In this document: positions 2,406 through 4,802 of the stretch, piece after piece
Layout of the letters: each line of letters opens with the position of its first letter
Numbering within the stretch: position 1 is the first letter of the stretch
Assembly: GCF_003334785.1 (NCBI RefSeq)
Contig: NZ_QOWV01000037.1
DNA: 7,023 nt
From: Escherichia coli
GTDB taxonomy: Bacteria; Pseudomonadota; Gammaproteobacteria; Enterobacterales; Enterobacteriaceae
Strand: one strand, 5' to 3'
Translations under genes and position numbers: made by a program
Notes under the pieces: model-generated
The model's database searches: none
Seen by the model: only the letters and a program-made list of their open reading frames with translations
Told to the model about the DNA's origin: nothing

Positions 2406-4802
2406 ATGATGCACGAAAAGAACATCGCCCTGCTTTGTGATGAAGCCGACCGGCTTTTGCAACTGAATATCAATCTGCTCCGGCAAATGGTTGATGAGCC
2501 GGATGTGTTATCTGACAGTAAGAACGAAAACGGGCTGCTTTTTGATAAACGGAAAGCGCTGAAAAGAATTGAGGAGCTGGAGGGCGAACAAATCAAAACC
2601 GCCCGCAGGGAGATGGTGCTGGCTGTGGTCGGCACGATGAAGGCGGGCAAATCAACCACCATCAACGCCATTGTGGGGCAGGAAATTCTGCCCAACCGTA
2701 ACCGCCCCATGACCTCGGTACCGACATTGATCCGCCACGTTCCCGGAAAAACGGAACCGGTCCTCCATCTGGAACATATTCAGCCCGTCCGCAATTTATT
2801 AATCACACTGCAGGAAAAACTCGCCACCCCAGCAGGGCAGCAAGTCGCACAGTCCCTGCAGCAAACCGGGGATACCCGCGAACTACTGGATATTCTGGCG
2901 GATGATGTCTGGCTTAAAAATGAATACCACGGAGAAGACGAAATCTTTACCGGACTGGCATCGTTAAACGATCTGGTTCGTCTTGCTGCGGCAATGGGGA
3001 CTGAATTTCCTTTTGACGAATACGCAGAAGTGCAGAAACTGCCGGTGATCGACGTGGAGTTCAGCCACCTGGTGGGGATGGATACATGCCAGGGAACACT
3101 CACACTGCTGGATACCCCCGGCCCTAATGAAGCCGGACAACTGCAGATGGAAGTGATGATGCGGGATCAACTGCAGAAAGCCTCTGCGGTGCTGGCGGTG
3201 ATGGATTACACCCAGATGAACTCGAAAGCCGATGAGGAGGTTCGTAAAGAGCTTAATGCCATTGCTGACATATCAGCCGGCCGCCTGTTTGTGCTGGTCA
3301 ATAAATTTGATGAAAAAGACCGCAATGGCGATGGGGCAGATGCCGTACGCCAGAAGGTACCGGCAATGCTGAACAGCGATGTGCTGCCCTCCTCCCGCGT
3401 TTATCCTGGCTCCTCGCGCCAGGCGTACCTAGCTAACCGTGCGCTTCATGAGTTACAAAAAAACGGCACACTTCCTGATGATGAAGCCTGGGTCGATGAT
3501 TTTGTCAGGGAAGCCTTCGGTCGCATGAAAAAAGAATACGTCTGTAAAGACAGCGAACTGGTCACCGAAGGGGCGACAGACCTGTGGGAAGGCTCACTTA
3601 TCGATCAACTGATAACGGAAGTCATACTGAGTTCACACTCCAGAGCTGCGGCACTGGCGGTTGACTCTGCCGCCGCAAAACTGATGCAGAATGCAGAAAA
3701 TGTCAGCGAATATCTGTCATTACGCCATCAGGGGCTGCAACAAAGCATTCAGTCACTGCAGGCGCATATCTCCAGCCTGCTGGCAGATATCCGGGAAATC
3801 GCGGACTGTCAGAATAAGGTGACCGGTGATGTCAGAATGGCCATGGAGGAGATCGATGCTAAAACCCGGGAATTACTGACGGAGGTCTGCGCCTCACTGG
3901 AAGAGGAGCTGAATGCCTATTTCAGAAGCGGTAAACGCAAAGAACAGCAAATGCTGGAAGAAGAAGGCGCAGAACAACGCATATCGCAGCAGGGGATTAT
4001 TGGAAAAATTCGTGAGCAGTTTAGTGTCAGTGCCCCGGGCCATCATTCATGGAAACGAGACTTTGATCCGGACAGCCCCGAGATAAAATTCAGTGATCGC
4101 AGGGAAGCCCTTAAACTGATGACGCAAATCGAATCGACCGTGACTAGCCTGCACCGTGAGGCTGAAGCACAGTTCCGGCCTGAACTGGAAAAAATCGTCA
4201 GGGGTATCGAAACAGGTTTTCGTGGTACGGCCCTGTATGCCACAGAAAATATTGCCGGACGTATCAATGCCCGCCTGGAGGACGAGGGCTTCACTGTAAA
4301 AATCACTTTCCCGGCAGTCAGCCAGTTACAGACCAGGATCGCGGTAAAAACAAATCTGAGTGCGCTTATGGAGGAAAGAACTGAGACAGTCACCCGTCGC
4401 CGTCGGCAGAGTGGTTTCTGGGGAAAGATTTGTGGAGCGTTTGGCACCAGTGACTGGGGCTGGGAAAACTATAAGGAGAATGTGAGCCGCAGTGTGATCA
4501 ATATCAACTCGGTCAGGAAGGAAGTGATGTCACTGACCCGGGCATATTTCGGGGAGTTGCAGGCATCCATTGAGCAGAATATTAACCAGCCCGTCCGCCA
4601 GGAGATCGATGATTTTTTCTGTACATTCAGGGAAAAAGTCGAACAGCTACGTAACACACTCATTCAGAGCTCTGAAGATCATAAACGCGATCAGCAGGCA
4701 CAGGAGCAGCTTACGGAGCGCCTTCAGGCATTAAATGAAAGGGTTCCCGAGCTGATTACTGACAGTAAGGCGTTAAGGGAAGAACTGGAGACACTGCTGT
4801 GA
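2406..4802 (+). CDS. Bacterial dynamin-like protein (large membrane-remodelling GTPase)
   Basis: 798-aa ORF. G1 P-loop GTMKAGKS at nt 2631-2654 (aa 76-83); G3 DTPG at nt 3111-3122 (D236); G4 NKFD at nt 3300-3311 (aa 299-302). Long helical, coiled-coil-like C-terminal region rich in E/Q/L/R, as in dynamin stalks. AAAGGTGA at 2398-2405 upstream of tandem ATGs at 2406 and 2409. Confidence 0.9.
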   Translation: MMHEKNIALLCDEADRLLQLNINLLRQMVDEPDVLSDSKNENGLLFDKRKALKRIEELEGEQIKTARREMVLAVVGTMKAGKSTTINAIVGQEILPNRNRPMTSVPTLIRHVPGKTEPVLHLEHIQPVRNLLITLQEKLATPAGQQVAQSLQQTGDTRELLDILADDVWLKNEYHGEDEIFTGLASLNDLVRLAAAMGTEFPFDEYAEVQKLPVIDVEFSHLVGMDTCQGTLTLLDTPGPNEAGQLQMEVMMRDQLQKASAVLAVMDYTQMNSKADEEVRKELNAIADISAGRLFVLVNKFDEKDRNGDGADAVRQKVPAMLNSDVLPSSRVYPGSSRQAYLANRALHELQKNGTLPDDEAWVDDFVREAFGRMKKEYVCKDSELVTEGATDLWEGSLIDQLITEVILSSHSRAAALAVDSAAAKLMQNAENVSEYLSLRHQGLQQSIQSLQAHISSLLADIREIADCQNKVTGDVRMAMEEIDAKTRELLTEVCASLEEELNAYFRSGKRKEQQMLEEEGAEQRISQQGIIGKIREQFSVSAPGHHSWKRDFDPDSPEIKFSDRREALKLMTQIESTVTSLHREAEAQFRPELEKIVRGIETGFRGTALYATENIAGRINARLEDEGFTVKITFPAVSQLQTRIAVKTNLSALMEERTETVTRRRRQSGFWGKICGAFGTSDWGWENYKENVSRSVININSVRKEVMSLTRAYFGELQASIEQNINQPVRQEIDDFFCTFREKVEQLRNTLIQSSEDHKRDQQAQEQLTERLQALNERVPELITDSKALREELETLL

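Follow-up and report, generated by a model that had tools for sequence, protein, structure and literature searches.

Few bacterial dynamin-like proteins have been described, and each solved case reaches the membrane with a different tip. At the tip of its trunk, where the middle domain gives way to the GED helix, Nostoc BDLP carries a hydrophobic element, and experiments have demonstrated that its lipid binding requires L576, L577 and F583 (PMC2862293). In IniA of Mycobacterium, a BDLP with a trunk of three long helices, a long parallel loop and a tip loop, basic residues of the lipid-interacting (LI) loop bind anionic lipid, and R488 and K489 are experimentally required (PMC6715688). [quoted passage not shown] LeoA, although its tip is hydrophobic, did not bind lipid on its own (PMC4159319). 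RdcA/CrfC (YjdA) of E. coli K-12, the partner of RdcB (YjcZ), is described as soluble and without a membrane-binding motif (PMC6510439, PMC6374313). RdcA activates DgcE (PMC6510439), and an N-terminal beta-clamp-binding motif, 41-QLALP, has been described for CrfC (PMC6374313). In the literature we found neither a structure of RdcA nor a described dynamin-patatin defence system, and the one paper that noticed the operon considered here stated that it could locate no earlier description of a dynamin-lipase link (PMC12922286).

The window analyzed is a stretch of 7,023 nucleotides of E. coli DNA (contig NZ_QOWV01000037.1). As judged from its overlapping start and stop codons, a gene annotated 'dynamin family protein' heads a translationally coupled operon that continues with an RdcB/YjcZ-like gene and a patatin gene and likely ends at a terminator-like hairpin (Table 1). 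The RefSeq start of the dynamin gene is at 2409, one codon later, which yields 797 aa. The operon, in which a dynamin is paired with a lipase, was found in 2442 of 5426 complete E. coli genomes (about 45%) and in many other organisms across Proteobacteria; among the long homologues there was none in which the dynamin is fused to a patatin or YjcZ domain. The YjcZ-family protein has an all-helical AF2 model (pLDDT 80.6). The patatin contains the PF01734 motifs GGGxxG, GxS42xG and D223-G-G, and in 31 homologues its catalytic positions (G13-G15/G18, S42, D223-G225) show conservation of at least 93%.

Table 1. Features of the operon and of the predicted dynamin fold. Residue numbers refer to the 798-aa protein.
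Feature	Nucleotides	Residues	Strand	Properties
Dynamin-family GTPase gene	2406..4802		+	ORF, 798 aa; paralogue of RdcA/CrfC
G domain	2610..3464	69-353	+	Intact G1 GTMKAGKS, G2 T103, G3 DTPG, G4 NKFD; AF2 secondary structure
Trunk helix 1	3747..3929	448-508	+	AF2, pLDDT about 90-95; leads away from G domain; weak collinear match to BDLP 348-417
Tip loop 1	3930..4079	509-558	+	K/E-rich, largely disordered linker; short hydrophobic/Gly element GIIGKIREQF
Short strand EIKF	4080..4091	559-562	+	DSSP E559-562; within conserved DFDPxxPxIxF motif
Trunk helix 2	4098..4283	565-626	+	AF2; returns towards neck; weak match to BDLP 428-509
Extended return linker	4284..4370	627-655	+	No regular secondary structure; pLDDT 53-65 at 631-650
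Hairpin strand 1 EERTETVTRRRR	4371..4406	656-667	+	DSSP E656-667; polar/charged at every position
Arg collar	4395..4406	664-667	+	Last four residues of hairpin strand 1
Hairpin cap QSGFWGKICGAFGTSDWG	4407..4460	668-685	+	Two-turn helix 671-678 (DSSP, pLDDT 72-81) and Gly/Trp (WGW) turn; proposed membrane-inserting tip
Hairpin strand 2 WENYKENVSRSVIN	4461..4502	686-699	+	DSSP E686-699
Trunk helix 3, GED-like	4503..4679	700-758	+	AF2; tip back to neck; weak collinear match to BDLP 598-683
C-terminal neck helices	4692..4796	763-797	+	Presumed bundling with H2-30, H48-67, H414-445
RdcB/YjcZ-family gene	4799..5704		+	301 aa; Pfam YjcZ 1e-69; GTG start overlaps dynamin stop (GTGA)
Patatin-like phospholipase gene	5701..6771		+	356 aa; Pfam Patatin (PF01734) 2e-23; ATG overlaps YjcZ stop (ATGA)
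Terminator-like hairpin and T-run	6791..6819		+	20 nt past patatin stop

RdcA/CrfC is the nearest sequence relative of the dynamin protein, with 29-35% identity over the full length. Both have the G domain, the neck, a three-helix trunk, a hairpin with WGW-x-x-Y and, immediately downstream, a YjcZ-family partner with an overlapping start. The protein nevertheless is not a CrfC/RdcA equivalog, as its score with the NCBIfam CrfC model (NF007368), 556.8 bits, is below the curated cut-off of 1146, and it differs from RdcA/CrfC in the absence of the clamp-binding motif: in it and in the other patatin-linked relatives, the loop is shorter and contains no QLxLx. Two families of defence systems share features with the operon. 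Eleos (LeoA/LeoBC) likewise comprises dynamin-like GTPases on mobile islands, with phage defence proposed or shown, but its DLPs come in pairs and neither YjcZ nor patatin accompanies them, and membership was rejected: the LeoBC match in PADLOC (E=4.7e-4) contains no passing stretch and the operon encodes no second DLP. Patatin effectors of defence systems, CapV of CBASS among them, have the same intact Ser-Asp dyad and a likely membrane-damaging output, whereas the upstream partner here is a GTPase and there is no cyclase or nucleotide-signal gene in the window; the score with the NCBIfam CBASS_lipase model was 15.7 bits against a cut-off of 200. A PADLOC scan of all four proteins of the window assigned none to a defence system and gave marginal LeoBC, ZorA and effector matches alone. 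For the upstream WYL protein, NCBIfam supplied no name.

The dynamin fold is evident from several lines of evidence. The protein matches Pfam Dynamin_N (3.7e-17), and ten G-domain columns are invariant in 92 homologues (G76, G81, K82, S83, T103, D236, P238, G239, N299 and D302), comprising the GxxxxGKS, T103, DxxG and NKxD signatures of dynamin-type G1-G4. In the AF2 model (pLDDT 86, pTM 0.77; secondary structure assigned by DSSP) the G domain is followed by a helical trunk and accompanied by a helical neck of N- and C-terminal helices, as is typical of BDLP and mitofusins. Structure searches returned BDLP, SynDLP, IniA and mitofusins as top matches, with Nostoc BDLP the best in Foldseek; in a sequence search of the PDB, significant alignment was limited to the G domain. 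The trunk consists, in order, of three helices of 59-62 residues, with a 29-residue extended linker and a hairpin immediately before the GED-like helix. The helices are interrupted at 445/448 and 758/763, in agreement with the BDLP hinge. HMM matches to BDLP are collinear but individually non-significant, and they place the hairpin opposite BDLP residues 510-597, adjoining the paddle; they agree with the order of the elements in suggesting a hairpin just N-terminal to the GED helix, at the distal end of the trunk. The linker, with the conserved residues G628, F629, V631, I633 and P636, may return along the trunk and so stand in for a fourth helix, analogous to the alpha9-loop of IniA.

The first-pass annotation had drawn attention to an Arg- and Trp/Phe/Gly-rich patch around positions 4400-4480, and such a patch indeed exists: RRRRQSGFWGKICGAFGTSDWGWEN, residues 664-688 (nt 4395-4469). 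The composition by itself is modestly unusual. Three of the seven Trp residues of the protein fall within 15 residues, as in 143 of 5000 shuffled sequences; six W/F/Y within 19 residues were reached by 205, and ten W/F/Y/G within 19 residues by 6 of 5000. On the Wimley-White interfacial scale, no other window of the protein scores as well (-4.9 kcal/mol over 19 aa for the patch, -0.4 for the runner-up). The stronger evidence is conservation. Among 92 representatives of 29-41% identity, the patch ranks with one other segment as the best conserved of the C-terminal half and has the consensus T-x-(R/K)-x-R-R-Q-S-G-x-W-G-x-x-C-x-W-F-x-T-x-D-W-G-W-E-x-Y. Conservation in the C-terminal region is highest at W684 (87%) and G685 (89%), and G670, W672, G673, C676, F679 and D683 are likewise conserved in the cap. 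In a divergent sub-clade the cap is replaced by RKWYTLWL, which retains basic and aromatic residues, and the patatin is still present.

The patch had been placed within a helical C-terminal region and likened to the paddle or tip loops of BDLP-type proteins. Its flanks are indeed helical, but the segment itself is predicted to form the tip of a beta-hairpin (E656-667, H671-678, E686-699) rather than a helix of the bundle. The likeness holds for the predicted trunk-tip-like topology, as in IniA, and for the combination of basic and aromatic residues; it does not extend to a helical paddle. Nostoc BDLP has a helical-hairpin paddle and a four-helix trunk, whereas here a beta-hairpin with a short, two-turn helical cap and three helices plus a linker are predicted, and the LI loop of IniA, one of the best structural matches, runs parallel to the trunk and is neither a beta-hairpin nor rich in Trp. 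IniA in addition lacks a lipase partner, and in the tip region it has no detectable similarity in sequence to the protein described here. DynA differs as a two-headed fusion protein with a short Phe-based motif and no lipase. Neither of two further readings of the patch was borne out: no transmembrane segment was found in any of the three operon proteins, with the best Kyte-Doolittle 19-mer of the dynamin (1.16) far from transmembrane hydrophobicity, and a classical amphipathic helix was rejected on account of an unremarkable hydrophobic moment (muH 0.3-0.4, rank 431 of 788).

In the model that we favor with moderate confidence, based on the predicted structure, the patch caps a beta-hairpin 'finger' that is exposed to solvent at the far end of the trunk of a BDLP/mitofusin-type GTPase, and it contacts the membrane. 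The position of the finger would correspond to that of the BDLP paddle, the IniA LI loop and the K-FFF-K site of DynA. Since the patch would thus cap a hairpin where related proteins have their membrane-binding element, it probably anchors the module to the inner membrane. We infer exposure of the tip from two features of the sequences. Strand 1 is polar throughout the 92 homologues, with a hydrophobic fraction of <=0.23 at all positions but one, and among E. coli alleles that are >=90% identical only two stretches vary more than the tip, in which the substitutions (F/L/I/V, W/I, A/W/F) preserve hydrophobic character. In strand 2, in which W686, E687, Y689 and positions 696 and 698 are conserved, the distal W686 and Y689 would belong to the aromatic tip and the proximal hydrophobic residues would pack at the trunk end. 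The short strand 559-562, near which F553, I560 and F562 are conserved, may pair with the base of the hairpin. Tip loop 1, with a pLDDT < 50 at residues 536-548, is the most variable stretch among the E. coli alleles; it is hypervariable in sequence and length at constant hydrophobic/Gly character, is long and hydrophobic only in patatin-linked relatives and is a candidate second membrane-contact element.

According to this model, the Arg collar (R664-R667, together with K674) would draw the tip to the anionic surface of the inner membrane, where the Trp/Phe/Cys/Gly cap (F671, W672, I675, C676, F679, W684, W686, Y689) would enter the interfacial zone of that membrane's cytoplasmic leaflet. With its hydrophobic/Gly element, loop 1 would probably assist the membrane contact of the neighboring finger, and oligomerization of the GTPase would multiply the weak affinity of single tips. 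In this way the GTPase, the RdcB-like protein tightly coupled to it and the patatin translated along with them would be brought to, or close to, the presumed target membrane of the lipase. Arguing against this model are the equal presence of WGW-x-x-Y, the best-conserved part of the patch, in RdcA/CrfC, the unremarkable hydrophobic moment, a conservation tighter than non-specific lipid contact calls for, and the precedent of LeoA. The tip aromatics could also be packed on each other and thus shielded.

A comparison of 29 dynamin-YjcZ-patatin loci with 48 RdcA/RdcB loci without patatin revealed differences that coincide with the lipase and fit a membrane-contacting tip but that, as the outcome of a single evolutionary event, are not statistical evidence. 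The net charge of the collar is +3.8 in the patatin-linked loci versus -0.8 in the RdcA loci, the best 15-mer on the Wimley-White scale is -4.35 versus -2.53 and loop 1, which has a hydrophobic element in the patatin-linked loci, scores -2.15 versus +1.25, whereas the best 11-mer does not differ (-3.73 versus -3.26, p=0.12). The core enterobacterial RdcA/RdcB pair has kept WGW-x-x-Y and lost the Arg collar, the GxWG...C part, which reads G-M-R-E-T-V-S-R in RdcA, and the second hydrophobic tip loop, now short.

The same comparison would suit a finger that docks to a protein, be it the patatin, the RdcB-like subunit or an integral membrane protein, and does not bind lipid, an alternative that we consider unlikely. 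Only loci with a patatin gene have the collar and the GxWG..C half, as would be expected of a lipase-binding site no less than of a lipid-binding site, and the motif is conserved more tightly than non-specific lipid binding requires, a possible sign of constraint by structure or by a specific partner. RdcA, which retains WGW, binds RdcB tightly as well as a transmembrane domain, MASE1 of DgcE (PMC6510439). RdcB, however, is present in both clades and therefore does not explain the clade-specific half of the motif. Docking to the patatin is difficult to reconcile with the RKWYTLWL sub-clade, which has a patatin despite a completely different cap, and docking in general with tip residues and a loop 1 that differ among close alleles in all but their hydrophobic or Gly character.

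Less probable still is a purely structural motif, in which a Trp/Gly-rich mini-core without a ligand closes and stabilizes the hairpin and the trunk end. D683-W684-G685-W686-E687-x-Y689 is kept in both clades regardless of the lipase, the Gly residues at 670, 673 and 685 suit tight turns, and a pLDDT of 72-81 indicates that the patch is ordered rather than floppy; yet a hydrophobic cap at the end of a ribbon that is polar throughout has no packing partner, and neither the conserved collar, the joint loss of collar and loop 1 with the patatin nor the allelic hot spot at the tip would be explained. HU and IHF bind DNA through two-stranded ribbons that are rich in R/K/T and carry a wedge residue. 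That the Arg-rich ribbon with its aromatic tip is such a nucleic-acid-binding arm, in keeping with the reported link of CrfC to replication forks, the clamp and nucleoid positioning (PMC6374313), is very improbable given that the CrfC/RdcA clade itself lacks the basic collar, that QLALP is absent from the 798-aa protein and that the effector of the operon is a lipase.

If the membrane-contacting finger is real, a Trp/Gly-rich beta-finger with an Arg collar would be a fourth tip design among bacterial dynamin-like proteins, and W672, F679, W684, W686, R664-667 and loop 1 would offer a mutable handle on the function of the module and on the solubility of the domesticated relative RdcA/CrfC. More tentatively, dynamin, YjcZ and patatin might constitute an undescribed, widely mobile, membrane-directed module, often WYL-regulated, that serves in an abortive-infection-type phage defence or a stress response. 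GTP-dependent assembly at the inner membrane via the Trp-rich beta-finger and the hypervariable second tip loop would position or switch on the phospholipase, and the c-di-GMP regulator RdcA/RdcB of the E. coli core genome would descend from such a module by domestication, having shed the lipase together with the basic collar and the second tip loop.

Two further observations concern the tip. An internal duplication between loop 1 and the tip is marginal in the allele studied here (score 44, reached by 2 of 500 shuffles) and obvious in allele P0038 and in E. albertii. At one locus from a metagenome-assembled genome (L019), an orphan dynamin has a patatin-type tip and neither YjcZ nor patatin within 6 kb.

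The stretch of four Arg residues followed by a Trp/Phe/Gly-rich segment that the first-pass annotation had noticed in the dynamin-family GTPase is present at aa 664-688 (nt 4395-4469) and is conserved in 92 cluster representatives of 29-41% identity. The patch has three of the seven Trp residues of the protein within a 15-residue stretch (shuffling, p about 0.03) and ten W/F/Y/G residues within 19 (p about 0.001). In a Wimley-White interfacial scan the patch is far ahead with -4.9 kcal/mol, the next window reaching -0.4; its hydrophobic moment is ordinary. Conservation is stronger evidence than composition. 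The representatives have the family motif T-x-(R/K)-x-R-R-Q-S-G-x-W-G-x-x-C-x-W-F-x-T-x-D-W-G-W-E-x-Y, within which W684 and G685 are better conserved than any other residue of the C-terminal region, and the 25-residue window from 663 ranks second in conservation in the C-terminal half, after the first neck helix. The tip helix has a lone cysteine halfway along, Cys676 (nt 4431-4433), which occurs in most patatin-linked homologues and is invariant across E. coli alleles; the RdcA clade has Ser or Ala instead. It may serve as a small hydrophobic residue, or else as a site of redox chemistry or acylation.

An AlphaFold2 model based on the 92-representative alignment (pLDDT 86.3, pTM 0.77) was compared with known structures by Foldseek, which ranked the Nostoc BDLP first (E=2.4e-14), followed by SynDLP, IniA and mitofusins. 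[quoted passage not shown] It is not a CrfC/RdcA equivalog (557 vs 1146 bits, no clamp motif) and not a member of Eleos; the lipase of the operon is not a member of CapV. The patch had been assigned to the helical C-terminal region, but the model places it outside any bundle helix: two strands (656-667 and 686-699), joined by a two-turn helix (671-678) and a Gly/Trp turn, form a long beta-hairpin, which the patch is predicted to cap (pLDDT 72-81).

Features of the window (nt) and predicted structural elements of the dynamin (aa)
Feature	Position	Source
YeeP-like GTPase gene	nt 16-927	
Ag43/Cah autotransporter remnant, internal deletion	nt about 1224-2298	
Dynamin-family GTPase, first operon gene, 798 aa	nt 2406-4802	
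RdcB/YjcZ-family protein, second operon gene	nt 4799-5704	
Patatin-like phospholipase, third operon gene	nt 5701-6771	
Trunk helix	aa 448-508	AlphaFold2
Loop 1, disordered	aa 509-558	AlphaFold2
Short strand	aa 559-562	AlphaFold2
Second long helix	aa 565-626	AlphaFold2
29 residues without regular structure	aa 627-655	AlphaFold2
Hairpin, between 627-655 and helix 700-758	aa 656-699	AlphaFold2
Third long helix	aa 700-758	AlphaFold2
C-terminal helices	aa 763-797	AlphaFold2

The three long helices are of equal size (59-62 residues), and the breaks between helices at 445/448 and 758/763 fit the two-strand neck-trunk hinge of BDLPs. The last 35 residues are as long as the N-terminal neck helices, and the only strands outside the G domain that could pair with the short strand are those of the hairpin. 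From this topology, the hairpin base would lie at the distal end of the trunk, with the unstructured 29 residues returning along it. A solved precedent for such an arrangement is the trunk of IniA, in which three long helices are accompanied by a parallel long loop that takes the place of the additional trunk helices and the paddle found in BDLP and ends in a lipid-interacting loop (PMC6715688). In a profile search against PDB sequences, 435-504, 563-641 and 708-793 matched BDLP 348-417, 428-509 and 598-683, respectively; the matches are individually weak though collinear and leave the hairpin opposite the paddle region.

Family-wide, all positions of hairpin strand 1 are polar or charged (hydrophobic fraction at most 0.23, except 0.46 at 662), and hydrophobic residues are confined to the base of strand 2. 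A ribbon packed on the bundle would have an alternating hydrophobic face. Across 121 alleles sharing at least 90% identity, the most variable 20-residue windows were in loop 1 (entropy 1.03), at 373-392 (0.62) and at the tip, 671-690 (0.54), compared with a mean of 0.17 and 0.09 in the G domain; substitutions at the tip keep its hydrophobic character. The polar strand and the variable tip fit a surface element under physico-chemical constraint. The hot spot at 373-392 (nt 3522-3581) lies at the G-domain/neck boundary and is another cassette in allele P0005. A further candidate membrane element is loop 1 (nt 3930-4079), a disordered K/E-rich linker containing a short hydrophobic/Gly patch, GIIGKIREQF; E. 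coli alleles have three unrelated cassettes there, and in allele P0038 and in E. albertii (L005) it contains a second copy of the tip motif, RRSQSGLWGKMSRLYGINNPGWENY.

Scanning one genome per species yielded 80 loci, which were compared over L005-L084, with K-12 rdcA-rdcB (L002, 5136-8239) set against window nt 2406-6771. Full dynamin-YjcZ-patatin loci numbered 29, in Escherichia albertii, Pantoea, Erwinia, Pseudomonas, Gallionella, Paraburkholderia, purple sulfur bacteria, a Pontiellaceae MAG and others; another 48 loci have dynamin and YjcZ only and are the core RdcA/RdcB genes of Enterobacteriaceae. Both groups share D/x-W-G-W-E-x-Y, whereas the basic collar (net charge +3.8 vs -0.8), G-x-W-G, Cys676 and W/F at 678-679 (best 15-mer -4.35 vs -2.53 kcal/mol) and the long loop 1 (52 vs 22 residues) are confined to the patatin-linked group. 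The hydrophobic/Gly element of loop 1 scores -2.15 in that group and +1.25 in RdcA (Mann-Whitney p=7e-10, uncorrected for phylogeny). In a tree calculated without these columns the RdcA clade is monophyletic and adjoins the patatin-linked genes of Budvicia and Serratia, so that the contrast amounts to a single event, the joint loss of lipase, collar and loop 1. The E. coli c-di-GMP regulator RdcA/RdcB thus seems to descend from the three-gene module by a single loss of the lipase. The joint loss is in keeping with the reported solubility of RdcA/CrfC and its reported lack of a typical membrane-binding motif (PMC6510439, PMC6374313). In a divergent sub-clade that retains the patatin the cap reads RKWYTLWL, again basic and aromatic. 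An orphan homologue in an Oceanospirillales MAG (L019, 181-2610), whose tip is of the patatin type and whose loop 1 is short, adjoins chaperone-usher pilus genes and has neither YjcZ nor patatin in the 6 kb downstream; it may be a copy in decay or a chimera of the assembly.

A membrane-interfacial finger is the best-supported reading of the patch and a moderately probable one. The Arg collar would be pulled electrostatically to PG/cardiolipin, the Trp/Phe/Cys cap would partition into the interface, loop 1 would make a second contact and oligomerisation would add avidity. The same logic has been demonstrated by mutagenesis in DynA (K360/K367 and F363-365), IniA (R488/K489) and BDLP (L576/L577/F583). 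In LeoA, however, a hydrophobic tip alone does not guarantee lipid binding. The proposed membrane paddle is partly supported, in place and chemistry but not in architecture: the tip may function like a paddle or LI loop, but the BDLP paddle is a helical hairpin and this is a beta-hairpin. The suggested transmembrane check found no stretch of the dynamin near transmembrane hydrophobicity and no such segment in any of the three operon proteins; since, moreover, the GGGxxG / GxSxG / DGG set of the patatin is intact and RdcA and RdcB bind tightly in K-12 according to the literature, the tip would be the obvious candidate for the element that takes the module to the lipids on which it acts.

Docking of the patch on the lipase or on a membrane protein is less likely than lipid binding, though RdcA docks on MASE1 and the conservation of the motif exceeds the need of lipid binding. 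That excess also suits a structural role of WGW, which is likely in part, as the best-conserved half of the motif is common to soluble RdcA. A nucleic-acid-binding arm is very improbable because the clamp-linked clade has no collar and the QLALP clamp motif is missing from the window protein.

Taken whole, the operon holds more interest than the patch. Its genes overlap by GTGA and then ATGA, downstream of the third gene lies a terminator-like hairpin, and the operon occurs in 2442 of 5426 complete E. coli genomes (query coverage at least 80%). The window matches chromosomal islands of E. coli, with 100% identity to strain TW10722 over nt 2300-6800. The Ag43/Cah gene is a remnant because it lacks 1,846 bp internally relative to TW10722 (junction near 2065-2068). 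The YeeP-like GTPase gene, outside the operon, is intact, with the TW10722 copy split by IS100; its weak PADLOC matches to LeoBC (7e-8) and LeoA (4.4e-5) reflect only a generic G domain. The literature search found the operon otherwise uncharacterised apart from a 2026 transcriptome paper, which reports strong induction in a lysogen, terms it a putative defence system and states that its authors saw no clear connection between dynamin and phospholipase in published work (PMC12922286). What speaks for a role in defence or stress is circumstantial: this induction, the location of E. coli copies in mobile islands, the hot-spot tip loops and the gene neighbourhood. In 7 of 30 patatin-type loci a WYL-domain regulator is encoded upstream in the same orientation (HTH-WYL-WCX in L003, 977-1888, and in L010, L012, L013, L014, L028 and L080). 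In the single locus L003 a MazE/PIN toxin-antitoxin pair lies next to it, a context typical of defence islands.
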